From the IMG/VR virus record IMGVR_UViG_2540341247_000004: a stretch of 20,000 bases of DNA. The stretch is one strand, 5' to 3'. Positions within the stretch are counted from its first letter, which is position 1; every line of letters starts with the position of its first letter. This document shows positions 9,320 through 20,000 of the stretch, in pieces. The notes below the pieces were generated by a model that did no database searches, was not told the DNA's origin, and was given only the letters and a program-made list of their open reading frames with translations. This DNA comes from an uncultured virus (IMG/VR IMGVR_UViG_2540341247_000004) (lineage: Duplodnaviria; Heunggongvirae; Uroviricota; Caudoviricetes). The position numbers and the translations under genes were made by a program.

Positions 9320-9612
9320 TAAAAGCGTTGACAGAAGCTGAACGCAAAGCCGTCGACGCCTACCTAGATTCCGGGGGTCGCGTTTATACCGCGCGCACGG
9401 GCGAAAGTGGCCTTTATGACGAGACGGGGCTTCCTCTGCGACCCGGTATCGATGGGGTGGGAAGACATACCCGTGCGCGCGTTCAGGCGTTTCGTCGGAT
9501 GAAGGCCGAAGGTGCCACCAATGTTGAGATTGCGGAGCATCTGGGGATCAGCCTTTACGCATTGAGGGGCACCCTCAACCGCTGGGCTGGTTGGGATGGT
9601 GACGACAAATGA
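9316..9612 (+). CDS. Small protein with C-terminal HTH (98 aa)
   Basis: ATGA overlaps with both neighbouring genes; ATNVEIAEHLGISLYALRGTL is an HTH pattern. Confidence 0.7.
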   Translation: MIKALTEAERKAVDAYLDSGGRVYTARTGESGLYDETGLPLRPGIDGVGRHTRARVQAFRRMKAEGATNVEIAEHLGISLYALRGTLNRWAGWDGDDK

Positions 9613-11585
9613 ACACGATCCTTCTCGATATCGAAGTCTACAAGGATTACTTCTTCCTCGGGATGTTGCGTGTCGAGGACGGAGTCCGTCGGGGCTTCGA
9701 GATGAGTTCACGCACCCCGGAAGGCCCGGATCGCGAAGATCAGATCGAGCGGATGCGCCTGGATGTTCGCAAGTATCTGCACCAGTTCAACACGGTGGGC
9801 TTCAACTCCCTCGGATACGACCTCCCGATGATATGGTATTGGGTCGAGGGGGCCACCAACGAACAGCTGAAAAGCGCAAGCGACCGGATCATCAAAGGCA
9901 ATGTGAAGTGGTGGGATGTAGAGGACATGCTTGGAGTCCGAATTCCGTTCAAGGTCAAGCAACAGCACGTAGACCTGATCGAACCCCAGCCCAACCCTTT
10001 CGCCAGCCTAAAGATTCTGAACGGTCGTCTGCATGGCAAACAGTTGCAGGACTTGCCGTATGATCCTGACATCGACCTGACCCCTGTCCAAATGGACCGG
10101 CTGAATCATTACTGCCTGCAAAACGACCTCGACGCGACGCACAACCTCTGGACCACCATGGGCGAGGCGATCGATCTTCGACGCAAGGTTTCAGACGAAC
10201 TGGGCGTGAACGTCATGTCCAAGTCGGACACCCAGATGGGTCTTGCGATCATCAAGAAGCGCGTCGAGGACATCACAGGCAAACGGGTGAAGCGCACAGG
10301 GGCCACACCGGGTCAGACCTTTCGATACAAGGCCCCCGCTTACATCCATTTTGAAACACCCCGGCTTCGCGAGATTCTGACCCAAATTCAGAAGCACGAT
10401 TTTGTGGTGACCGAGACCGGGAAAGTCGACCTTCCGAAATGGCTGAAAGACGCCAAGATCGGAATCGGCAGTTCGGTCTATCAGATGGGCCTGGGTGGCT
10501 TGCACTCGACCGAGTCCAACCGGGCTGTGAGATCCACCAACAGCCACGCCCTTTGCGATTTCGACGTGGCGTCCTATTACCCGGCGATCATCCTTAACAC
10601 CGGGCTTTACCCGGAAGCCATCGGCCCGGTCTTCACCGACGTCTATCGCGGTATCAGGGACGACCGGATCGTAGCGAAGAAGGCCAAGGACAAGGTTACC
10701 GACAAGTCGATGAAGATTGCCCTGAACGGCACCTTCGGCTCACTCGGGTCACCCTACTCCTTCGTCTACGCACCGCATCTTCTGATCGCGGTGACGCTCA
10801 CCGGGCAACTGGCCCTGCTGATGTTCATAGAGCGCGCCGAGCGGGCCGGAATCGAGGCTGTGAGCGGCAACACAGACGGCGTGGTGTTCCGCATACCCAG
10901 GGATCTCTGGGACGGGCTTGCTGGTGACCGTCCACGACCGTCTGTGTTGGCTGACGTGGTGGAAGGCTGGGAGCGCGACACTGGGTTCACTCTTGAGGGG
11001 ACCGAGTATTCCGCACTCTATAACCAGTCGGTCAACAGCTATTATGCGGTGAAGAAGGACGGCGGGAAGATCAAGCAAAAGGGTCCGTTTGCGGACTGGT
11101 GGGACTACAACCCCGACCCCCGCGAACAGATGATGCACAACCCGAGCGCCACGATCTGTTCCGTGGCGGCTGCTGAGAAGATCGCCAACGGGACTCCTGT
11201 TGCCGAAACCATTCGAGCAAGCCGCGATATCAAACAGTTTGTCACGGTAATCAACGCGACCGGCGGGGCGACCTGGCGGGGCGAGTATCTGGGTAAAGTT
11301 GTCAGATACTACTGGTCCACTGATGGAGATCCGATCTTCAAGAAGAAGGCTCATCCGAAAACCGGGAACCATCCCAAGATTCCGAAGACAGACGGTGCCA
11401 AAGAGTGCATGCGCCTGCCCGACGAATTCCCTGATGACATCGACTATAAGCGATACGTTGCAGAAGCCGAGGCGATCCTGAAAGCCATTGGCTACTACGG
11501 TGACGTGATCCAGGCGCAGAAGCCAGTCAGGCTTACAAAAGCGAATAGAAAGGCGGTGCTTGAGGCATGGGTGACATCAGCATAG
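9609..11585 (+). CDS. Phage DNA polymerase with family-B-type motifs and proofreading domain
   Basis: Exo motifs LDIEVY, GFNSLGYD and YCLQND; polymerase motifs DFDVASYYPAII, KIALNGTFG and NTDG. Confidence 0.88.
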   Translation: MNTILLDIEVYKDYFFLGMLRVEDGVRRGFEMSSRTPEGPDREDQIERMRLDVRKYLHQFNTVGFNSLGYDLPMIWYWVEGATNEQLKSASDRIIKGNVKWWDVEDMLGVRIPFKVKQQHVDLIEPQPNPFASLKILNGRLHGKQLQDLPYDPDIDLTPVQMDRLNHYCLQNDLDATHNLWTTMGEAIDLRRKVSDELGVNVMSKSDTQMGLAIIKKRVEDITGKRVKRTGATPGQTFRYKAPAYIHFETPRLREILTQIQKHDFVVTETGKVDLPKWLKDAKIGIGSSVYQMGLGGLHSTESNRAVRSTNSHALCDFDVASYYPAIILNTGLYPEAIGPVFTDVYRGIRDDRIVAKKAKDKVTDKSMKIALNGTFGSLGSPYSFVYAPHLLIAVTLTGQLALLMFIERAERAGIEAVSGNTDGVVFRIPRDLWDGLAGDRPRPSVLADVVEGWERDTGFTLEGTEYSALYNQSVNSYYAVKKDGGKIKQKGPFADWWDYNPDPREQMMHNPSATICSVAAAEKIANGTPVAETIRASRDIKQFVTVINATGGATWRGEYLGKVVRYYWSTDGDPIFKKKAHPKTGNHPKIPKTDGAKECMRLPDEFPDDIDYKRYVAEAEAILKAIGYYGDVIQAQKPVRLTKANRKAVLEAWVTSA

Positions 11586-12116: not shown

Positions 12117-13525
12117 ACAGACCTATCCGAACCAGAAGCATGCTTCGGGACAAACAGCTCATAATCGCCAAGTATGTCACAGACGAGGACGGTAAGCTGA
12201 TCGTCAGCGGAATGGGGTCCGGTAAGACGGGCGCGACGCTGACAGGCATGCGCAAACTACTCGACTCGTTCGCTGTTCGACATTGGCTTGTGGTGGGGCC
12301 GAAATTCGTGGCCCAAAATACCTGGCCCGATGAGATCGAAAGCTGGGAACACACCCGCTGCATGTCCTATGCGGTCGCGGTGGGGACGGACGCGCAGCGG
12401 CGCGCGGCGATCGCGGCACGGGCTGAAATCACGACGATCAATTTTGAGTCCCTGCAATGGCTGGCGAAGCATATCGGATCGGTGAAGAACTGGTATTGGG
12501 ACGGCGTGGTGATCGATGAATCCAGTCGTTTCAAAGCGGGTAAGAAGCGCACCACCCGTGCCCGTGTCAAGGACTCCAAGGGGAACATGAAAATTCGAAA
12601 AGGCGGCAACATGACCCGATTTGGCGTTATGGCGACCGCCAGGAGCAAGGTGAACCGAATTGTCGAGCTCACCGGCACCCCTCTACCGCAGGGCATCCAT
12701 GACGCCTGGGGTCAGATTTATCTGATTGACCAAGGGGAAAGACTGGGCCGGTCGATGACCGAGTTCGAAGAACGCTGGTTCATCAAGAACCAATACACGC
12801 ATCAGATCAAACCCAAGTCAGGGGCAGAAGCCGAAATCATGCGGCTGATCTCAGACGTCATGGTGACCATTCCCCAAGAGAAACTGGTCGAAGAACCTCG
12901 TTTCATTCCCGTGAAAGTCACGCTGCCACCGAAGGTGATTCGCGCTTACAAGGAGTTCGAACGCACACTTTACGCCACGGAATACGACGTCGAGGCTGTT
13001 TCGCGGGGCGTCCTTGCTAACAAACTTTTGCAGTTTGCAAACGGGTCAATGTATCGCGAAGACGGGTCAGTTGTGTCGGTTCATGGCGAAAAGATGTCGG
13101 CTTTGGACGAGATTGTGGCACAAGCTACAGGCGAAAATATCTTAGTCTTTTACTCGTATAAGTTTGATCGCGATTCCATACTAAAGAAGTATCCTCACGC
13201 AGTAGTTGCAAACGAGGACACAGACGCGATCCGCAAATGGAACAATGGCGAAATATCAATGATGCTTGCTCATCCCGCGTCTATCGGGCACGGGACAAAC
13301 CTTCAATATGGGGGTCATATTGCGGTTTGGTTCGGTCTCCCGTGGAGCCTTGAACTCTACCTGCAAGCGAACTGGCGTCTCCCTCGACCGGGCCAGACCG
13401 AGCAGGTTCTGATCTACCAGATCATAGCCGAAGACACCTATGACAAGGTGGCGATCGACGTCCTGGCCCGGAAGGACGCCACTCAAGAATCACTGGTCCA
13501 ATCCGTGCTTCACCGAATGGTGTGA
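12113..13525 (+). CDS. SNF2-like superfamily 2 helicase
   Basis: MGSGKT, VIDESS, LTGTP, HPASIGHGTNLQ and QANWRLPRPGQ motifs. Confidence 0.92.
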   Translation: MNRPIRTRSMLRDKQLIIAKYVTDEDGKLIVSGMGSGKTGATLTGMRKLLDSFAVRHWLVVGPKFVAQNTWPDEIESWEHTRCMSYAVAVGTDAQRRAAIAARAEITTINFESLQWLAKHIGSVKNWYWDGVVIDESSRFKAGKKRTTRARVKDSKGNMKIRKGGNMTRFGVMATARSKVNRIVELTGTPLPQGIHDAWGQIYLIDQGERLGRSMTEFEERWFIKNQYTHQIKPKSGAEAEIMRLISDVMVTIPQEKLVEEPRFIPVKVTLPPKVIRAYKEFERTLYATEYDVEAVSRGVLANKLLQFANGSMYREDGSVVSVHGEKMSALDEIVAQATGENILVFYSYKFDRDSILKKYPHAVVANEDTDAIRKWNNGEISMMLAHPASIGHGTNLQYGGHIAVWFGLPWSLELYLQANWRLPRPGQTEQVLIYQIIAEDTYDKVAIDVLARKDATQESLVQSVLHRMV

Positions 13526-13609
13526 CTTTCAACTATTTCTTGCCTGAGACGTGCAATTGATCTAAGTCAATAAACGTGAAATTAATCGCACTTCAATCAA
13601 CAGTGGATC

Positions 13610-14305
13610 ATGCCGATGCTTGACAAGAAAATATTGCACCCCGATTTTGCCGAGCGTTTTCAGCTCGCCTGCGAGGGTAACCCCCATGTCCCGCCCCAGC
13701 ACTACGGGCGGCTGGGTTGGATCGTCAAAGAAATGAAATCCCGCTTTGACATCAAGACGACACCAGAAACCGTTCGTCGTTGGTCGTCGGGTGAGGCACG
13801 TCCGCGCACAGACAAGCTGCGCGCCCTTGCGCAGCTTTTACAGGTTGACCAGGCATGGCTGGCCCTTGGGCAACAGCCTACCGACACACCCAAGGAACGT
13901 CGCCTGCGCGACGCCGAGCGCGATGGTGCAGTCAACCTTCTGGCAGGCGCAATCCGCATGTGCGGGGGAAACCCAGCCTTCCCCACGGACGATGACACCC
14001 AGGCAAAAGAAAACCTGACCGACCTGTTCGCGATCATCAAAGGTGCCCAATACGCAATACACGTTACGACTCCTGTGATCGAAGGCGACAAGATGACGTT
14101 CGCGATCCCGGTCAAGGCCCGGAACTCGCTGGCACTTGCCGTCGTCATGGAACCCAGATTGCAGTTCAGTTTCTACGAACTTCCCTGGGATCAAGTCGAG
14201 GAACTGGGGCAGATGAAATCCGGCAACTACCATCTTGAGGTTCCCGTGTCGCAGCTCGCGACTGTGGGTGCCCGGAAAATCGAGACATTTGCAGAGCGGA
14301 TTTGA
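13610..14305 (+). CDS. XRE-family HTH transcriptional regulator, candidate prophage repressor
   Basis: TTPETVRRWSSGEARPRTDKLRALAQLLQVDQAWLALG is a typical XRE HTH; AT-rich regulatory DNA on both sides; no obvious S24 peptidase motifs. Confidence 0.8.
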   Translation: MPMLDKKILHPDFAERFQLACEGNPHVPPQHYGRLGWIVKEMKSRFDIKTTPETVRRWSSGEARPRTDKLRALAQLLQVDQAWLALGQQPTDTPKERRLRDAERDGAVNLLAGAIRMCGGNPAFPTDDDTQAKENLTDLFAIIKGAQYAIHVTTPVIEGDKMTFAIPVKARNSLALAVVMEPRLQFSFYELPWDQVEELGQMKSGNYHLEVPVSQLATVGARKIETFAERI

Positions 14306-14320
14306 CAATCACCTTTAATG

Positions 14321-14349
14321 TTGTGACTTTCACTAATTAAGTGTATTCT
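14321..14349 (+). promoter_or_regulatory. Putative promoter of the methyltransferase gene overlapped by an operator-like motif
   Basis: TTGTGA-N17-TATTCT; ACTTTCAC-N7-GTGT at 14326-14344; an additional TTGACA at 14302-14307. Confidence 0.45.
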
Positions 14350-14376
14350 GAATCCTTGTCGAAGGGGGTTTAGGAC

Positions 14377-17300
14377 ATGCGTTTCGGAAGTGTTTGCAGC
14401 GGGATTGAAGCTGCGTCTGTAGCCTTCGCCCCCCTTGGGTGGGAAGCCGCTTGGCTGGCCGAAACAGACCTGGCGGCGTCTGCTGTCCTTTCGCACCGAT
14501 ATGGGGCGACCGCACCCAGATTCCCGGTCTCGGAAAAGGATGCAAAGCGCGCCGCGAAGATCGAGTGGGGGGATCGCGTCACCAACTGGGGTGACATGAC
14601 CCGCATCCCAGACCTGGTCCGATCAGGTGAAGCCGAGGCCCCGGACGTTCTCTGCGGCGGGACGCCGTGTTTTCCGGCAGGAGCTTTGGTTTCCACGCCA
14701 AAAGGTTTCAAGGAAATCCAGACAATCCGACCAGGGGACATAGTTCTGACTCATGAGGGTAGGTATCGCAAAGTCCTGCGGACAGGTTCAAAGTTCGCCA
14801 CCAATACGGTCTGCATAACCGGTCAAGGCCACCATGGGTTAAATTCGACCTCGAACCATCCGTTCCTGACTCGGCAGAGAACCTTTAGTTCCACACGCAA
14901 GAACGGGAAAGCGGTGGCTCTGACTGGCGTAACCCATCTTCAATGGACGGATGCGGCTGATTTGAAGGGACACCACTGGGCAGCACTCGAACGCTACCCG
15001 GAGCATCCCATAATGTCCCCGGAAGCTGTGGGGCGTGAGACACCTGTTCCAGGTATGTGCGAGGCCCTAGCATGGCTGGCGGGCGCGTATGTAGGGGACG
15101 GCTGGACCAGAATCAACGACCGACGGGGTTATGTCCTCTACGGTGTGAATGATTCAAAGGCAGAATTAATACGAAAAACACTTTCTGATTACGGGCTAAC
15201 CCACTCCGAGTCGCGCGAACGAACAACACTTCGAATCCAGATTTCTTCGCGCCCACTTGCCCGTTGGATGGTCACGAATTTTGGAAGCGGATCGGAAGGC
15301 AAGGAACTTCCGACATGGCTGTTCGGCGCGGATGAAGGAATTCGTCGGGCGTTCTTTGAAGGCTACGCTGCAATGGACGGGACCAAAATTCGCCTAGGTC
15401 ACAGAATCGTAACAGTAAGCCGAAAGCTTGCCCTTGGGACCAAAATTCTAGCAAACACTCTTGGTATGGCGGCAAGCGTTCGGCTTGTTGAGCCAACTCG
15501 AAATAAGTGTTTCATCGAAGGCCGGGAAGTTCGTGAAAAAGCATACTATACCGTGTCTACTTCGACATCCAGTAGAACGTCTTTCTCAGATGGAAAGTAT
15601 CGATTCGGCTGTGTAAGATCGGTAACCCCATCCAAACCATGTATGGTCTACAACCTAGAGGTAGAAGAAGATCACACCTACTTAGTGGATGGAATTGTAG
15701 TCCATAATTGCCAGTCGTATTCGATTGCCGGCCGCCGCAAGGGCCTGGGTGATGAACGCGGTCAACTGACCCTCAAATTCGTGGAAATCGCAGATGAAAT
15801 CGACAACGCCCGCGCAAGACTCGGCCTCCAACCTTGCATTGTCTTCTGGGAAAACGTGCCCGGAGTCCTCACCGATGCCGGAAATGCCTTCGGAAACTAC
15901 CTTGCGGATCTCGCCGGCGACGACCAGGCTCTTGAGCCGGGGCCGCGACCTGAACATGGACGGTCCTCTACCCATTGGAGCTGGAAAAAAGACGCCGGTG
16001 AGCATCGCCCGAAGTGGTCAAACGCTGGTATTATTGTTGGACCCAAGCGGACAGTCGCATGGCGAGTCATGGATGCCCAATATTTCGGTCTGGCCCAACG
16101 ACGCGCGCGTCTGTTTGTTGTCGCAAGTGCTGGAATGGGGATACATCCCGACGAAATACTTCTTGAGTTCGACCGCATGCGCCGGGATACTCAGCCGCGC
16201 CGACCGACGGGGGAAGACCTTGCCCGATCTGCTGTTGAACGCGCTTTTGAAAGCGGCGACTGGCATAGAGGACTCCACCCCAGTCTCGCGCAATCCCACA
16301 GCACAGGTGGTATCGGACAGTCAAATCAAGAACTGTTCTCACAGCGCGGCGCGGGACTCGTGGCCGTCCCCGGTGCTGATATGGGCCACGGCGGCATAGA
16401 ACCGGATGTCTTTCGTCTGGTTGCGTTTGGCGATTACAGGCACGATTCAAAGAGTTCGTCCCTGAACGCGCGTGACCACAAGTATGTCACTGACATTGTT
16501 TTACATCACGGCCAGCCTGTGACCTCCCCTGGTGATGTCTTGGCTTTCGACACCACGCAGATCACGTCCCCTGCCAACTTCTCCCGGCCCCAACCGGGAG
16601 ATCCCTGTCATCCTCTTGCTGCTGGGGCACACGCCCCCGCGATCTGCTTCACGTCGAAGGATCACGGACAGGACGCGACCGAAGAAATGGCCCCTACGAT
16701 GCGCGCAATGTCTCATGGCGCGTCACACGCCAACGGTGGCGGGCAGCTTGCCGTCGCGTTCACCGAGCGAGGGCGACCGGAAGGTCGAACCGTGGAAGTC
16801 AACGGAGACTTGGCCTACGCGCTTCTGGCCCCCACGGGCGGATCGCGGTCACAGGAAAAGATGGTCGCCACAAAAGGAGCGCCCAATGCCGATGCCCATG
16901 AAACCGACACCGCTCAAATTCTGCGAGAACTGCGAGAATGTGTTGGTGAGGAAGCGTTCGCCCGGTGGGGCACCGGAATCGTTGCTTCACTTTTCTCGCC
17001 GGAAGTTTTGCAATCGTGGCTGCATGGCAAAAAGTTTCTCACAACGCCCAAAGACGGACGACCCTTCTTGGATGACTGCGCACTACCACGCGCGCAAGAC
17101 TTGCCCGGAGGCGTCCTGCAAAATCTGTGGCTCGACGGGCCGCACGGATGTTCATCACAAGGACGAAGACTGGCAGAACAACTCACCAAGCAATTTGGTG
17201 AGACTTTGCAGATCATGCCACAACAAGCAGCATCGGTAGGCTTCGACTTGCACTATATGCCGGAAAAGGGCGAAGGGCCACGGGTTTTGCCCGAAGCACT

Positions 17301-18087
17301 TGCAGAGGTTCAAGAAATGGGGCGACCCGAAGCTGATAATGCGAAACGGATCACTACTTCGGTCAGACGACTGATCCCCGTTGAAACCGAAAGGCTGCAA
17401 GGTTTCCCTGACGGTTACACCCTTGTCCCAGTGGCCGGGAAACTGGCCGCAGACGGCCCCCGCTACAAGCAGCTGGGCAATAGCTGGCCGGTGGCCGTGG
17501 TCAACTGGATCGGCCAGCGGATCGACCGCGCTGTGAACAAACTCCCAAGAAACCTTCACCCTTTCACCCGAGGATTACGCATGGCTGACCGCACCGTAGA
17601 AAAAGGCGAGGCTCACAATCTCAACTCATTCATAACCGAACCACGGCCCGCTGCCTTCTGGGATCACTTCTTTCTTACCATGGCCGATCACACCGCAACT
17701 GCTTCGAAAGACCCCAGCACGAAGGTTGGCTGCGTCCTGGTCGATGACAGGCGGCGCGTGATCGGCGTTGGCTACAACGGCTTCCCTCGGGGCGTCCTGG
17801 ACCTCCCAGCACGGTATGCCGACCGCCCGACCAAATACCTCATGGTCCAGCATGCGGAAGCAAACGCGGTCCTTCAAGCAACCATCTCGACCCATGGGGC
17901 GACCGCTTTCGTGACCCATCCGCCTTGCGCAAACTGTGCCGGAATTCTGATTCAGGCTGGCATCAAGCGAGTAGTCACGCGGCACCCAGCGCCGGATCTC
18001 GCGGATCGGTTCAAGGACTCCTTCGACGCCGCTACTCAGATGTTTCTGGAAGCCGGAGTCTACCAGCGTTTCATTCGGCATCCCTGA
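14377..18087 (+). CDS. DNA (cytosine-5) methyltransferase with intein and long variable region, in frame with a C-terminal dCMP deaminase (1236 aa as assembled)
   Basis: Motif I FGSVCSGIEA, IV GGTP/CQ (split by the intein), VI ENVPG, VIII QRRARLFVV, IX RRLIPVETERLQGFP and X RYKQLGNSW; deaminase motifs follow. Confidence 0.92.
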   Translation: MRFGSVCSGIEAASVAFAPLGWEAAWLAETDLAASAVLSHRYGATAPRFPVSEKDAKRAAKIEWGDRVTNWGDMTRIPDLVRSGEAEAPDVLCGGTPCFPAGALVSTPKGFKEIQTIRPGDIVLTHEGRYRKVLRTGSKFATNTVCITGQGHHGLNSTSNHPFLTRQRTFSSTRKNGKAVALTGVTHLQWTDAADLKGHHWAALERYPEHPIMSPEAVGRETPVPGMCEALAWLAGAYVGDGWTRINDRRGYVLYGVNDSKAELIRKTLSDYGLTHSESRERTTLRIQISSRPLARWMVTNFGSGSEGKELPTWLFGADEGIRRAFFEGYAAMDGTKIRLGHRIVTVSRKLALGTKILANTLGMAASVRLVEPTRNKCFIEGREVREKAYYTVSTSTSSRTSFSDGKYRFGCVRSVTPSKPCMVYNLEVEEDHTYLVDGIVVHNCQSYSIAGRRKGLGDERGQLTLKFVEIADEIDNARARLGLQPCIVFWENVPGVLTDAGNAFGNYLADLAGDDQALEPGPRPEHGRSSTHWSWKKDAGEHRPKWSNAGIIVGPKRTVAWRVMDAQYFGLAQRRARLFVVASAGMGIHPDEILLEFDRMRRDTQPRRPTGEDLARSAVERAFESGDWHRGLHPSLAQSHSTGGIGQSNQELFSQRGAGLVAVPGADMGHGGIEPDVFRLVAFGDYRHDSKSSSLNARDHKYVTDIVLHHGQPVTSPGDVLAFDTTQITSPANFSRPQPGDPCHPLAAGAHAPAICFTSKDHGQDATEEMAPTMRAMSHGASHANGGGQLAVAFTERGRPEGRTVEVNGDLAYALLAPTGGSRSQEKMVATKGAPNADAHETDTAQILRELRECVGEEAFARWGTGIVASLFSPEVLQSWLHGKKFLTTPKDGRPFLDDCALPRAQDLPGGVLQNLWLDGPHGCSSQGRRLAEQLTKQFGETLQIMPQQAASVGFDLHYMPEKGEGPRVLPEALAEVQEMGRPEADNAKRITTSVRRLIPVETERLQGFPDGYTLVPVAGKLAADGPRYKQLGNSWPVAVVNWIGQRIDRAVNKLPRNLHPFTRGLRMADRTVEKGEAHNLNSFITEPRPAAFWDHFFLTMADHTATASKDPSTKVGCVLVDDRRRVIGVGYNGFPRGVLDLPARYADRPTKYLMVQHAEANAVLQATISTHGATAFVTHPPCANCAGILIQAGIKRVVTRHPAPDLADRFKDSFDAATQMFLEAGVYQRFIRHP
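14668..15708 (+). mobile_element. Intein with LAGLIDADG homing endonuclease (347 aa, residues 98-444)
   Basis: Begins CFPAGALV; block B TSNHPF; LAGAYVGDG and FEGYAAMDG; block F VYNLEVEEDHTY; ends VVHN followed by Cys. Removal restores GGTPCQSYSIAG. Confidence 0.95.
15794..16399 (+). CDS. Nested +1-frame ORF, M.EcoHK31I beta-polypeptide-like (201 aa)
   Basis: Stop-free across MTase motifs VI-VIII; GESWMPN...CLLSQVLE...KYFLS..AC.GIL.RA.RRGK.LP resembles the alternative-frame beta subunit type (recalled similarity, not searched). Confidence 0.7.
   Translation: MKSTTPAQDSASNLALSSGKTCPESSPMPEMPSETTLRISPATTRLLSRGRDLNMDGPLPIGAGKKTPVSIARSGQTLVLLLDPSGQSHGESWMPNISVWPNDARVCLLSQVLEWGYIPTKYFLSSTACAGILSRADRRGKTLPDLLLNALLKAATGIEDSTPVSRNPTAQVVSDSQIKNCSHSAARDSWPSPVLIWATAA
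16886..17374 (+). CDS. Nested +1-frame HNH endonuclease with zinc fingers; in-frame TAG at 17237-17239
   Basis: AAGGAG at 16874-16879 then ATG 16886; CENC..KFCNRGC; CKIC...DVHHKDEDWQNNSPSNLVRLCRSCHNKQH. After the TAG the frame continues CTIC..AKGHGFCPKHLQRFKKWGDP to TGA at 17372-17374. Confidence 0.85.
17581..18087 (+). CDS. dCMP deaminase domain with its own internal start (168 aa)
   Basis: GAGGA at 17570-17574 then ATG 17581; SKDPSTKVG, GYNGFPRG, HAEANA and PCANC zinc-deaminase motifs. Confidence 0.88.
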   Translation: MADRTVEKGEAHNLNSFITEPRPAAFWDHFFLTMADHTATASKDPSTKVGCVLVDDRRRVIGVGYNGFPRGVLDLPARYADRPTKYLMVQHAEANAVLQATISTHGATAFVTHPPCANCAGILIQAGIKRVVTRHPAPDLADRFKDSFDAATQMFLEAGVYQRFIRHP

Positions 18088-18495
18088 TCGAATTGAACCA
18101 CTCTGCTAGGGCGACCTCACCACCGATGGTCGCCCTGACAAACGCCCGGTCGCCGCACGGATTACCTGCGATCTGCTTGACCTGGGCCACCCTCAAGTCC
18201 CGATAGTCCCTGCGCCCGCCGTCCGGTCTCACGCCGAACGGTTCGGCCGCGAGACTGACCGCGCCCCTGCCCTCGGGCTTGAACATGCGGATCCGATACC
18301 CATTCTTCCTGTGACCCAACCGGGGCGAACCTGGCGTTCAAGCAATAGCCCGACGAACGGTTCACGGTAGCAGATGGCGCTGATGTCATCGACAAAGGCC
18401 GCGTGATTAGGCGGCAGATCGGCAACTGCAACCGTGCCCTGATCGGCAGAAGCGACCGATGCCACGGCGAGGAAATAGAACACAGCGGATTTCAT
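18071..18495 (-). pseudogene. Probable exported protein gene, apparently frameshifted near 18305-18320 (real change or sequencing error)
   Basis: GGAG RBS and signal-peptide-like MKSAVFYFLAVASVASA. ORFs 18229-18495 and 18071-18319 overlap in adjacent frames and would join into a protein of about 140 aa. Confidence 0.45.
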
Positions 18496-18568
18496 AACTC
18501 ACTCCAACCAATGGTAGTGTCGATATGATCGGGCATATGGGAATCAAGGCAAAGCATTGTCTCGTAAA

Positions 18569-18670
18569 CAGTTCGTCCCAGAAAGTCCCCTTGTTTGTCC
18601 CAGTTCGTCCCAGTAATTATTAATTGTTAGGCACGGTCTTAGGCACGGTTGATTTTCAAGTCCTTGTAAT
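18569..18670. promoter_or_regulatory. att arm region: candidate excisionase, integrase-arm and IHF binding sites
   Basis: CAGTTCGTCCCAG at 18569-18581 and 18601-18613, GTTTGTCCCAG at 18593-18603, TTAGGCACGGT at 18627-18637 and 18639-18649, IHF-like CAAGTCCTTGTAA at 18657-18669. Confidence 0.7.
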
Positions 18671-18688
18671 CATTGAGGATGTGATAGT

Positions 18689-18702
18689 TGCTAGCCCGAC
18701 CA
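18689..18702 (+). other. attR core: duplicated tRNA 3' end TGCTAGCCCGACCA (tRNA-Pro-like)
   Basis: Ends in CCGACCA as bacterial tRNA-Pro genes do; no T-arm or rest of a cloverleaf upstream; sits at the phage/host boundary. Confidence 0.7.
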
Positions 18703-18804
18703 TGAACACCCTCCCCCACACCCCTCCTGATCCTTGCCTTGGCCGTTTGCCCTTGCAAACCGGCGGATTGTCCGGAAAACATGACACAAATTCGGGGGAT
18801 GGGA

Positions 18805-19886
18805 ATGACAGGGGTTCTGGCAAGCCAACAGATCGAAGACCTGTGCGCCAGCGGCGCGATCCAGCTGGATCGGCCCTTTTGCGAGGGACAGGTGCAACCC
18901 GCCAGCCTGGATCTGCCGCTGGGCGCTGTGGCCTTTCGCGTGCGGGCCTCCTTTCTTGCGGGGGCACGGGCGCCGCGTCACCGACCGGCTGGACCGGTTC
19001 GAGATGCACCGCATCGACCTGACCCAGGGTGCCGTGCTGGAAAAGGGCTGCGTCTATCTTGTGCCGCTGATGGAATCCCTGGACCTGCCGCACGACATCC
19101 ACGCCGTCGCCAATGCCAAAAGCTCGACCGGGCGGCTGGATCTGCTCACCCGCGTCGTCAGCGACGGCGGGGTCGAGTTCGACCGCATTCCCGCAGGCTA
19201 TACCGGCCCGCTTTACGCCGAGATCTGCCCGCGGTCGTTCTCGGTGCTGGTGCGCCCCGGCATGCGGCTGAACCAGATCCGGTTCCGGCAGGGGCAGGCC
19301 GTGCTGGATGACGCCCGCGCTGACCGCGCTGCACGCCGACCAGCGGCTGGTCGATGGCGAGGCCGTCATTCAGGATGGTCTTGGCTTTTCGGTGGACTTG
19401 ACGCCGGGTCCGCGGCGGACTGGTGGGCTATCGTGCCAAGCCCCACACCGGGGTGATCGATCTGGACCGGATCGGGGCCTATGACCCGGCGGATTTCTGG
19501 GAAGAAGTGATCACCCGCGATGAACTGATCATCCTCGATCCGGGCGCCTTCTATATCCTGGTCAGCCGCGAGGCGGTGCACATCCCGCCCGACCACGCCG
19601 CCGAGATGGCCCCTTACATCGCGATGGTGGGCGAGTTCCGGGTGCATTACGCCGGGTTTTTCGACCCCGGGTTCGGCCATGACGCGGCGGGCGGTGCCGG
19701 GTCGCGCGGCGCGTGCTCGAGGTGCGGTGCCACGAAGCGCCCTTCGTGCTGGAACACGGGCAGATCGTGGGCAGGCTGGTGTACGAGCGGATGTCACAGG
19801 TGCCCAGGCAGGTCTACGGGGCCGGAATCGCCTCGAATTACCAGGGCCAGGGGCTGAAACTGTCCAAGCATTTCCGCGCGCCCTGA
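18805..19886 (+). pseudogene. dcd: Host 2'-deoxycytidine 5'-triphosphate deaminase, alphaproteobacterial long form, with about 4 apparent frameshifts
   Basis: QVQPASLDL, ANAKSSTGRLDLLTR, GYRAKPHTG, GEFRVHYAGFFDPGFG, VLEVRCHEAPF and SNYQGQGLKLSKHF occur in order but change frame near 18965, 19315, 19410 and 19710. Probably an intact gene with consensus errors. Confidence 0.85.
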
Positions 19887-19907
19887 ACGGGTCGGAAAAT
19901 TACCGGG

Positions 19908-20000
19908 TCAGAACTTGCCCATGCGACGGCTCACCCGCGCGGCCTTGCGCGCGGTCTGCGCCGCCTGCTTGCCCTTGCGGGCCTGCTGACGTTCCGCTTG
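19908..20000 (-). CDS. 3' end of a small basic host hypothetical protein (partial)
   Basis: Reads QAERQQARKGKQAAQTARKAARVSRRMGKF-stop, convergent with dcd, with GC3-biased codons. Confidence 0.55.
   Translation of the reverse strand, partial: QAERQQARKGKQAAQTARKAARVSRRMGKF

Follow-up and report, generated by a model that had tools for sequence, protein, structure and literature searches.

The locus analysed here raises the question of how many proteins are encoded by what appears to be one long viral gene, and by which routes they are made. The window, a stretch of 20,000 nucleotides from an uncultured virus, contains a single ORF at 14377..18087 (1236 aa in the window as given). The ORF list places two further ORFs inside it, 15794..16399 (201 aa) and 16532..17239 (235 aa), which share one +1 frame (coordinate mod 3 = 2 for both and 1 for the main frame), as the preliminary description had observed. 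That description read the locus as one ORF yielding five proteins. All five coding units are present, and the sequence features are genuine; the single 3.7-kb ORF is probably an artefact. Most likely the deaminase is a gene of its own, joined to the rest by a difference in homopolymer length, and "one ORF" is not supported. Instead, the locus is read, with a probability of about 0.7, as the C5 cytosine methyltransferase (MTase) gene of a prophage-like element with stacked coding layers: an intein, a +1 gene, an HNH cassette and an overlapping deaminase gene (Table 1). The dual-coding DNA amounts to 606 + 354 (489 with the HNH remnant) + 18 nt, that is, about 1.0–1.1 kb, in agreement with the 1.1 kb proposed earlier. 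A search for RNA runs holding the stretch found none.

Table 1. Coordinates of the features of the MTase locus within the window.
Feature	Position	Strand	Remarks
MTase N-extein	14377..14664	+	motif I (FGSVCSGIEA, 14383-14412) to GGTP of motif IV; Pfam DNA_methylase
Class-1 LAGLIDADG intein, 348 aa	14665..15708	+	Cys1 (CFPAGALV) to VVHN; followed by the catalytic Cys (CQSYS, motif IV)
MTase C-extein	15709..17598	+	motif IV Cys through motif X; includes variable region and HNH read-through
Conserved +1 overlapping gene	15794..16399	+	201 aa here, typically 135-170 aa; conserved part roughly 15794-16270
MTase motif VI	15844-15867	+	main frame
MTase motif VIII	16093-16122	+	main frame
+1 gene core LLSQVLEWGYIPTKYFLSSTACAGILSRADRRGKTLPDLLLNALLKA	16115-16255	+	overlaps, then extends past, motif VIII-encoding DNA
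HNH cassette	16873..17361	+	insertion relative to uninvaded MTases; stop-free, unconserved host-frame linker just before motif IX
Predicted HNH endonuclease ORF, 117 aa	16886..17239	+	+1 frame; CxxC pairs; core DVHH...N...CRSCHNKQH; premature TAG 17237-17239
HNH C-terminal zinc-ribbon remnant (…CTICRKRAKGHGFCPKHLQRFKKWGDP…)	17240..17374	+	same +1 frame; TGA 17372-17374 inside host motif IX codons
MTase motif IX	17362-17418	+	main frame
MTase motif X	17464-17493	+	main frame
A run	17537..17539	+	AAA in window, AA in other copies; decides fusion versus two genes
dCMP deaminase, 168 aa from ATG	17581..18087	+	GAGGA upstream; HAE (17851-17868) and PCxxC (17923-17940) zinc motifs

The main frame encodes the MTase. 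DNA_methylase matches the main ORF in two stretches (E 2.8e-24, Pfam) and homologous MTases match the N-extein region (14377-14670), the nearest relative, L034, being 74% identical over the N-extein. In copies without an extra A at 17539, the MTase ORF comprises 1073 aa and stops near 17598; in the window it continues to 18087. The exteins are separated by an insert that its motifs and junctions identify as a class-1 LAGLIDADG element, positioned directly in front of the catalytic motif IV Cys. Within this insert are a TSNH in block B and two LAGLIDADG motifs (15076-15105 and 15352-15381), its junctions read GGTP/C…HN/CQSYS, and GGTPCQ is uninterrupted in the homologues D14E, L034 and L091. 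Pfam matches to the main ORF include Hint_2 at residues 97-140, PT-HINT extending to residue 444, and Intein_splicing; LAGLIDADG_3 at residues 323-371 lies under its curated cut-off (E 0.0018). Full-length matches to the intein occur in 61 phage records (tblastn) and, among the matches listed, 19 of 20 underlie methylase genes, including a P1-like dmt. An active MTase would require the intein to be spliced out.

The second insertion, the HNH cassette, is absent from the MTases of D14E, NV1.1.1 and L091. Comparison with related loci firmly supports a homing-endonuclease gene of the free-standing type, inserted before motif IX with its own ribosome-binding site. The conserved start is the ATG at 16886, 7 nt downstream of AAAAGGAG, and not the GTG at 16532 that opens the 235-aa ORF, in which the HNH domain scores 21.5 bits (Pfam cut-off 21.4). 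Full-length relatives are about 165 aa, as was seen when the zinc-ribbon remnant was compared with them. With its premature stop, the window copy may be decaying and its predicted nuclease may be inactive. Of 22 close relatives of the HNH, 21 are nested in the +1 frame of a long, open host ORF, and every host ORF examined with Pfam (15/15) is a C5 MTase. The distribution is sporadic: L034 has the HNH and no intein, other MTase homologues have neither, and related HNH genes are free-standing in phage phiKX1. This fits the earlier proposal that the gene is a hotspot for selfish nucleases. The distant relatives of the window HNH include seven inteins that carry an out-of-frame nuclease ORF while the host frame stays open.

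The +1 ORF upstream of the cassette belongs to a widespread family. A +1-frame match is found in all 24 homologous loci fetched, always in the +1 frame, and the core is matched by 142 phage and 532 plasmid records. In the seven phage records where the frame was checked, the core is +1 in six, including P7 dmt, and an in-frame fusion in one. The dmt of phage P1 has this +1 ORF as well. At E<=1e-3 the +1 protein matches 2555 representative proteins. The conservation of the underlying DNA is consistent with selection on a second frame: identity at the third positions of main-frame codons climbs from 0.34-0.37 to 0.56-0.75 across 15997-16250 and, from 16102 onwards, is higher than at first positions. 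Taken together with the recoding tests given below, this shows that the +1 frame is under selection and that the DNA is dual-coding. The preliminary description had made its reading depend in part on conservation of the nested frames; both are conserved, selection keeps them open, and the reading is not refuted on this point. The +1 gene probably uses a conserved ATG of its own as start codon; its start, translation and function are predicted. An ATG is located exactly 17 codons ahead of an SGKT anchor in 10 of 28 loci, a Shine–Dalgarno-like motif is scored upstream of it in five of those ten, and every one of 50 family members has Met at the aligned start. The window's own upstream motif, GTGGAA, is weak.

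What the +1 protein may do is suggested by remote homology. In one-chain C5 MTases, motif VIII is followed by an element, L-x-D-I-L-E … K-Y-Y-L-S, that leads into the target-recognition domain; this element is absent from the main frame of the present MTase family, which aligns to the motif VII-VIII columns only (hhalign). The +1 family aligns to the canonical segment after motif VIII (hhalign 91.5%, E 8.8e-7, score 43.8; best score 18.8 in 30 column-shuffled controls). The product would comprise a poorly ordered N-terminal part, overprinted on MTase motifs V-VIII, and a helical core of about 50 aa homologous to that element. The AlphaFold model is confident for residues ~108-158 only; a fold search with the model gave no match above Z 4.3. 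The Pfam, PHROG, NCBIfam and PDB sequences hold no match to the protein. Acting in trans, it would serve the MTase as an accessory subunit, and we infer this role from the homology and the layout of the gene.

Two other explanations of the +1 ORF have to be weighed. The ORF might be no gene at all, its openness and conservation being side effects of selection on the MTase frame combined with codon bias. Part of the +1 similarity is indeed a by-product, since two strongly conserved main-frame stretches, motif VI (WENVPGVL) and motifs VII-VIII (DAQYFG.AQRRRR), when read in +1 give the conserved strings SGKTSPES and MPNISEWPNDA, respectively; in addition, the protein is missing from the family libraries searched. 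When the loci are recoded synonymously, preserving the MTase protein and codon usage, 1.7-6.6 +1-frame stops are predicted per locus and the frame stays open in 0-12% of trials each, yet it is free of stops in 15/15 loci. In 9 of 12 pairs, amino acid identity in the +1 frame is higher than in any of 1000 recodings (z 4.8-8.4) and about double what recoding predicts; the excess is weak in the other three (z 1.0-2.0). Moreover, the peak of third-position conservation coincides with the stretch in which the main-frame protein varies most (16126-16250), a Streptococcus prophage with 39% GC also has the ORF open, and the start codon is conserved. A side effect is thus very unlikely. Programmed frameshifting from the MTase frame, which would produce an isoform made of the N-terminal half of the MTase and the +1 core in place of an independent small protein, is also unlikely, if less so. 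Such a product would place the canonical element after the catalytic half, as in one-chain MTases, and MTase motifs I-VI are joined to the +1 domain in single chains among database proteins (P0020, P0081, P0095, P0124, P0135 and P0138) and in an annotated phage CDS, FP_Toutatis gp14. Against this, the joints differ in place among the chimeric proteins, as indels or assembly errors would give, the chimeric chains are without motif VIII, and the ATG and invariant Met described above point to initiation within the ORF. The independent +1 gene is preferred.

Similar questions surround the two downstream units. The HNH cassette could be removed from the transcript or protein as an unrecognised intron or intein: it occupies a conserved site, which is typical of introns and inteins, and its HNH frame terminates within host motif IX codons. 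This is very improbable, the least likely of the alternatives. The region 14000-18500 has no Rfam match at E<=1 and no intron was found in it; the cassette part of the protein has no Hint match (Pfam); and an analogous element, ShiLan, has no intron or intein signature in the available text of its description (PMC11855218). Furthermore, the host frame of the window cassette contains 0 stops against 7.0 expected (0/2000 recodings open), and there are none in 16/16 loci, one of them a Staphylococcus phage gene of 36% GC, where 4-19 are expected. Such avoidance of host-frame stops by HNH codons would serve no purpose in a spliced RNA, and argues that the MTase is translated through the cassette as a linker, without splicing. 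In distant pairs, the linker peptide is not conserved beyond expectation. For the deaminase (dCMP_cyt_deam_1 at main ORF residues 1095-1201, E 4.4e-20, Pfam), the alternative is that the fusion is real in the strain and yields a bifunctional methylase-deaminase. This is doubtful, though less so than the other alternatives: the window AAA does give a single frame through to 18087. The deaminase is in the MTase frame because of the extra A, which is restricted to the window; it is absent from the IMG/VR copy and from Logan contigs of the 3/3 covering runs, all from one sample and possibly not independent of that copy. The window and the IMG/VR copy differ by 11 gaps and 2 mismatches, all in the last 1.2 kb and nearly all one- or two-base length changes in short runs, and the window has a neighbouring host gene, for dCTP deaminase, broken up between reading frames, which points to indel errors in this area. 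The deaminase also retains its own GAGGA-ATG start, and the sole other deaminase nearby, apart from the window's own copies, is unfused (L045, among the loci fetched to that point). Most likely, it is an ordinary downstream gene with an 18-nt overlap with the MTase end. The internal initiation proposed earlier survives as a ribosome-binding site and ATG of its own; the placement within the MTase ORF probably does not.

Each kind of layer in this gene, namely the intein, the hidden out-of-frame HNH and the nested +1 gene, has already been reported, and the +1 gene family seems undescribed so far. Inteins of phage C5 DNA methylases are covered, in the available text, by an actinobacteriophage survey (bioRxiv 10.1101/2025.01.02.630785). 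The window intein is a new allele and nothing more: it shares the class and insertion point of RCS47 dmt (P1-like), where the intein match stops at 73502 and the C-extein match begins at 73503, and no intein in the phage collection is more than 34% identical to it. The same survey, as far as its available text goes, describes inteins whose homing endonuclease occupies a reading frame of its own. The HNH cassette shares this design of an out-of-frame nuclease in an open host frame, with the difference that its carrier is the MTase itself and not an intein.

The closest parallel to the cassette is the ShiLan domain, a hidden out-of-frame HNH in the mycobacteriophage DNA methylase gp65 (Arsenault, Gosselin & Gogarten 2025, Genes 16:178, PMC11855218). 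According to the available text, both lie within a phage methylase gene that also carries an intein, lack host-frame stops and intron or intein signatures, and have a sporadic, homing-like distribution. They differ in frame (+1, frame 2, in the window; frame 3 in ShiLan) and in start, which is an ATG with a clear Shine–Dalgarno motif in the window and, in that text, a GTG without a ribosome-binding site in ShiLan. The lineages also differ, as the window HNH matches 12 phage records by tblastn, none from Mycobacterium. The window type occurs in hosts as different as high-GC phages and a Staphylococcus phage, and the window copy has its premature stop.

For the +1 gene, the comparison is with α/β C5 methyltransferases, reportedly described by Lee, Kam and Shaw in 1995 for M.EcoHK31I and by Karreman and de Waard in 1990 for the split M.AquI. 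Of 24 +1 relatives of 300-570 aa scanned with Pfam, 19 have a DNA_methylase match C-terminal to the +1 domain (profile positions about 248-324), and four of these longer relatives read in sequence carry motifs IX-X. The available texts describe M.AquI as a split α/β enzyme (PMC3404938) and place motif IX of M.EcoHK31I on the β chain, α lacking it (PMC2836561, PMC3404938). The longer relatives thus resemble an M.AquI-like β-type half, and Mycobacterium phage Porcelain has a split MTase plus the nested ORF; the window differs in having a main frame that continues without a break through motif X, and its +1 ORF ends after 201 codons. The likeness to M.EcoHK31I is one of layout, with a second polypeptide encoded wholly inside the MTase gene, on the same strand and in another frame. 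"Beta-like" therefore holds as an architectural analogy and not for motif IX, which the main frame keeps for itself; the +1 protein does not align to the motif IX of this family and corresponds instead to the element that follows motif VIII.

The MTase gene lies in a long plus-strand ORF. In Pfam, two stretches of this ORF match the C5 DNA methylase family (PF00145, E 2.8e-24), Hint and LAGLIDADG signals fall within residues 97–444, and residues 1095–1201 match a dCMP deaminase domain. The C5 motifs I, IV, VI, VIII, IX and X are present in order. The MTase +1 frame holds two long ORFs, the second of which ends in a Pfam HNH motif. Around the MTase, within a stretch (1–18.7 kb) that is lower in GC than both ends of the window, are phage replication genes for a PrimPol/VapE protein, DUF2800, an Enc34-type SSB, an exonuclease and a SNF2 helicase. 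The same DNA is listed in IMG/VR as a viral contig; replication and modification genes are present in this element and no structural gene was recognised in it. Among the public sequencing runs listed as containing this DNA, none was an RNA run. One ORF within the replication module had no Pfam match at E ≤ 0.001.

Features of the MTase locus and of the adjoining replication module, in window coordinates
Feature	Coordinates	Frame	Length	Remarks
Main ORF	14377–18087	main (+)	1236 aa	with AAA at 17537–17539
MTase in copies lacking the extra A at 17539	14377–17598	main	1073 aa	
Motif I		main		FGSVCSGIEA
Motif IV		main		GGTP, then intein, then CQSYS (catalytic Cys)
Motif VI		main		FWENVPGV
Motif VIII		main		AQRRARLFVV
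Motif IX		main		VRRLIPVETERLQGFPDGY
Motif X		main		YKQLGNSWPV
Intein	14665–15708	main		
Intein block B	14842–14865 region	main		TSNH
First +1 ORF	15794–16399	+1	201 aa	nested gene; core 16115–16255
Second +1 ORF	16532–17239	+1	235 aa	ends in HNH motif
HNH cassette	about 16873–17361			directly before motif IX
HNH ORF	16886–17239	+1		
dCMP deaminase ORF	17581–18087			
ORF in replication module	9609–11585		658 aa	

The first +1 ORF is conserved wherever the MTase was compared. It was matched in the +1 frame of the annotated MTase genes of D14E, UF_RH7 and Sinorhizobium phage NV1.1.1, with 52–62% identity, and in all 21 further viral contigs that a search with the main-frame protein returned, which gives 24 of 24 loci, relative frame +1 every time, with open stretches of 88–204 codons. 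In the most distant MTases the +1 identity is 47–48%, against 34–37% for the main frame. Were the ORF a by-product of the main frame, the SGKTSPES and MPNISEWPNDA segments would fit, as they merely read motifs VI and VII–VIII in the +1 frame; for this reason the strongest evidence for the +1 gene is the stretch downstream of motif VIII. Codon positions, openness and amino-acid identity all argue against the by-product explanation. When 18 non-redundant genes were aligned by codon, main-frame third-position identity rises from 0.34–0.37 upstream to 0.56–0.75 across 15997–16250, and from 16102 onward it exceeds first-position identity, a pattern that points to a dominant +1 frame. Synonymous recoding in which the protein and the codon usage of every MTase were preserved gave an expectation of 1.7–6.6 +1 stops per locus and an open frame in 0–12% of trials; the frame was observed open in 15/15 loci. 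The +1 identity to the window exceeded all 1000 recodings in nine of 12 pairs (z 4.8–8.4), the weak pairs being those with loci L018, L021 and L107 (z 1.0–2.0). In 10 of 28 loci an ATG stands exactly 17 codons upstream of the SGKT anchor, and five of these 10 scored for an upstream SD-like motif (GTGGAG or GTGAGG, from main-frame F-V/C-E codons); the window has a weaker GTGGAA. The preliminary description had listed a spliced MTase, an intein, two nested +1 products and a deaminase as the coding units here, and that inventory is right. It had also named lack of conservation of the nested frames as the outcome that would count against it; the frames are conserved, which favours nested genes.

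The family to which the +1 protein belongs is large. A phmmer search of 1.84 billion representatives returned 2555 matches at E ≤ 1e-3, 399 of them at E ≤ 1e-10. Many of these relatives are free-standing proteins of 140–165 aa. Longer relatives carry a C-terminal DNA_methylase match (profile about 248–324; 19/24 of those scanned with Pfam) and are thus β-type halves, and a few have the domain placed after MTase motifs I–VI within one chain. When viral contigs were searched with the related protein P0029 for the β-type arrangement at the DNA level, solely loci with a continuous main frame were found. With the core as tblastn query, 142 phage and 532 plasmid records matched; most of the plasmids are P1-like. 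Among seven phage records inspected, the core is in the +1 frame in six, namely Streptococcus Javan261 (39% GC), P7 dmt (L106, with the +1 frame open over 2267–2764), CcrColossus, Porcelain, CP-T1 and MA11, and is fused in frame in the seventh, FP_Toutatis gp14. In this Faecalibacterium phage (L104) the MTase is apparently split and permuted across two genes: gp14 lacks motif VIII and has motifs IV–VI in one frame with the +1 domain, and gp15 has a variable region, motifs IX–X and then a motif I-like segment. Mycobacterium phage Porcelain (L105, 1068–2268) has a naturally split MTase, annotated as two CDS, and a nested 159-codon +1 ORF that belongs to this family but whose N-terminal part is longer.

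Database and structure searches did not name the family. The +1 protein had no match in Pfam, PHROGs, NCBIfam or PDB sequences, and the first three contain no model for it; the best PDB sequence match, ribosomal protein eL42 (E 0.42), was taken as chance. Its nearest ESM Atlas clusters are viral 'hypothetical protein' clusters (scores 0.91–0.92), and a literature search for the gene family found no description. The AlphaFold model has a mean pLDDT of 64 and is confident only at three helices, at about residues 108–158. A wide VIA-align structure search gave no usable match (best Z 4.3), and the model of P0043, a natural β-type relative, was uninformative (mean pLDDT 48.6).

The position of the family in the MTase fold came from profile comparison. 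With hhalign, residues 106–139 of the +1 family align to the element 'kLvDILE-dVDEKYYLSeEK' found after motif VIII in 28 ordinary Staphylococcus-phage-type MTases, with 91.5% probability, E 8.8e-7 and a score of 43.8, the best of 30 column-shuffled control alignments scoring 18.8. The main-frame family aligns solely to the motif VII–VIII columns of the same segment. The same ~250 nt therefore specify, in two frames, successive parts of a canonical C5 MTase. That the +1 core contains motif IX was considered and rejected, as hhalign produced no alignment between the +1 family and the main-frame family including motif IX (E 0.3, 1 column). Separately, the ordinary Staphylococcus-phage C5 MTase genes of about 36% GC (L027:1993–2337 and its close relatives L110–L127) have the post-motif-VIII element in frame, yet their +1 frame is open for 114–139 codons across motifs IV–VIII, stopping at motif VIII; in L027, 6.5 stops were expected and 0/2000 recodings were open, and this concerns a single lineage only.

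From these sequence comparisons we infer that the +1 product may serve the MTase as a trans-acting subunit. On this view, the stretch joining motif VIII to the target-recognition domain would have been transferred to a gene of its own, overprinted in the +1 frame, and the main chain would depend on binding of that gene's product either for its activity or in choosing its target. We give a probability of roughly one in three to the wider proposal that a large family of phage and phage-plasmid C5 MTases annotated as single-chain enzymes, P1/P7 Dmt among them, are two-protein enzymes in which the +1 product is required for activity or target choice. If this is true, a second subunit that is indispensable yet missing from the annotation is concealed in hundreds of annotated MTase genes. 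What distinguishes the +1 gene is that its family, which has no name, is under clear selection and has a member in the model phage P1; with part of the canonical MTase fold encoded in a second frame, the proposal can be tested directly in P1. To our knowledge, few same-strand overlapping genes of double-stranded DNA phages are so deeply conserved and so easily tested.

The HNH gene within the second +1 ORF lies in an insertion, as homologous MTases align up to about 16764–16870 and then again from motif IX; the cassette is absent from D14E, NV1.1.1 and the homologous locus L091. The HNH ORF begins at an ATG preceded by AAAAGGAG and has CxxC pairs and an HNH core. A nuclease is predicted from a Pfam HNH score of 21.5 bits (cut-off 21.4) and from PHROG HNH families (best E 6.8e-10), and the C/H/N columns are invariant in the HNH alignment. 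The window copy has a TAG at 17237, also found in public-run contigs, past which a zinc-ribbon tail is readable in frame to a TGA inside the motif IX codons; full-length relatives have about 165 aa. In the Staphylococcus phage MTase gene CUB-EPI_14 gp45 (36% GC) a 43%-identical HNH lies in the +1 frame and the host frame is open across it; the third frame has 11 stops. Scanning viral contigs with an HNH profile identified 62 loci. Among close full-length relatives, 21 of 22 lie in the +1 frame of an open host ORF of 550–936 aa, and all 15 host ORFs given to Pfam are C5 methylases; in one relative (L044) and in phage phiKX1 the HNH gene is free-standing.

Synonymous recoding of the HNH gene predicted 4–19 host-frame stops, and none was observed in 16/16 loci (chance of an open frame ≤0.0105 each); for the window cassette 7.0 were expected and 0/2000 recodings were open. 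In distant pairs the host-frame peptide is as conserved as HNH conservation predicts (z −0.4 to 0.9), with excess conservation in closer pairs only (z 2.8–4.9), so that openness is the one constraint on the host frame. A conserved host-frame 'module' was rejected on the same ground, its 25% similarity to the Staphylococcus phage being the HNH-conservation expectation (z 0.9). With the host-frame peptide as query, a protein homologue search returned the window's own protein only, and a single-sequence search for related loci returned the window's own element only. A group I/II intron was rejected as carrier of the cassette (Rfam scan of 14000–18500 at E ≤ 1, 0 matches), and Pfam had no Hint match in main-ORF residues 833–995.

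A second HNH sub-lineage (L039–L043) is 46–50% identical to that of L030–L035, and in L039 it apparently lies after motif IX, not before, which suggests that related nucleases target neighbouring conserved sites. Distant relatives of the window HNH occur in the +1 frame of inteins at seven loci, in terminase large subunit (L057, L058, L067, L071, L082) and DNA polymerase A (L088, L090). Across each of these seven genes 8–18 stops were expected in the intein frame and 0 occur (0/1000 recodings open each). Inteins with out-of-frame nucleases are reported in a 2025 preprint (10.1101/2025.01.02.630785).

The 348-aa intein itself sits before the motif IV catalytic Cys, as the order GGTP, CFPAGALV…VVHN, CQSYS shows. 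The residues point to a class-1 intein, with C97, block-B TSNH and VVHN followed by the +1 Cys. Hint_2 scores 30.1 bits (cut-off 28.4), with PT-HINT and Intein_splicing under their cut-offs; two LAGLIDADG motifs of a putative homing endonuclease, LAGAYVGDGW and FFEGYAAMDG, are present and LAGLIDADG_3 scores 18.9 bits, under its cut-off of 22.5. GGTPCQ is uninterrupted in homologous MTases, including L034, the nearest relative (74% identity across the N-extein). In tblastn the intein matched 61 phage records over its full length, and 19/20 among the matches listed fall within methylase genes; for RCS47, a P1-like phage, the match to the intein stops exactly where that to the C-extein starts. 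C5 methylases are named as intein hosts in bioRxiv 10.1101/2025.01.02.630785, and the window intein is a new allele of a kind already known. The patchy presence of intein and HNH fits the earlier suggestion that this gene is a hotspot for selfish nucleases.

The deaminase (PF00383, zinc motifs HAEANA and PCANCA) is well supported, with E 4.4e-20 in Pfam and 4.9e-45 against the PHROG dCMP deaminase. Its fusion to the MTase is probably an artefact of assembly or strain. The window is identical to the IMG/VR copy over 12709–17538, and from 17538 to 18702 there are 11 gaps and 2 mismatches between the two. Almost every one of these is a change of one or two bases in the length of a short run, beginning with AAA versus AA at 17537–17539; with AA the MTase ends at 1073 aa and the deaminase starts at its own GAGGA-ATG, with an 18-nt MTase overlap. 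Logan contigs of three covering runs from one sample have AA at full depth and match the IMG/VR copy at most other differences, and a neighbouring host dCTP deaminase gene is split across at least two frames in the window. Past 18702 the two contigs (window 18702–20000, L004:5991–7056) diverge completely; the window runs on into this high-GC host gene and the IMG/VR contig into about 9 kb of other, phage-like sequence. In D14E (L001) and CUB-EPI_14 (L027) the MTase gene adjoins a nucleoside 2-deoxyribosyltransferase-like gene at the place equivalent to that of the window deaminase; nucleotide-metabolism genes thus recur beside the MTase.

Each layer of this locus, the intein, the hidden HNH and the nested MTase subunit, is alone of a known kind. 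The HNH cassette has the same design as the ShiLan domain outlined in PMC11855218, with insertion at a conserved site, a host frame free of stops beyond chance, an HNH in an alternate frame and, as far as its sequence indicates, no intron or intein signature. It differs from that domain in frame, start signal, HNH lineage and host range. The locus extends the 2025 'hidden HNH' class well past actinobacteriophages, and the recoding statistics suggest that the host frame is held open by selection. For the +1 gene the nearest precedent is M.EcoHK31I, whose β chain, as described in PMC2836561, lies wholly inside the α gene in another frame, just as the +1 ORF lies wholly inside the MTase gene. There, β supplies the motif IX that α lacks, whereas in the window the main frame has motif IX and the +1 family aligns after motif VIII.
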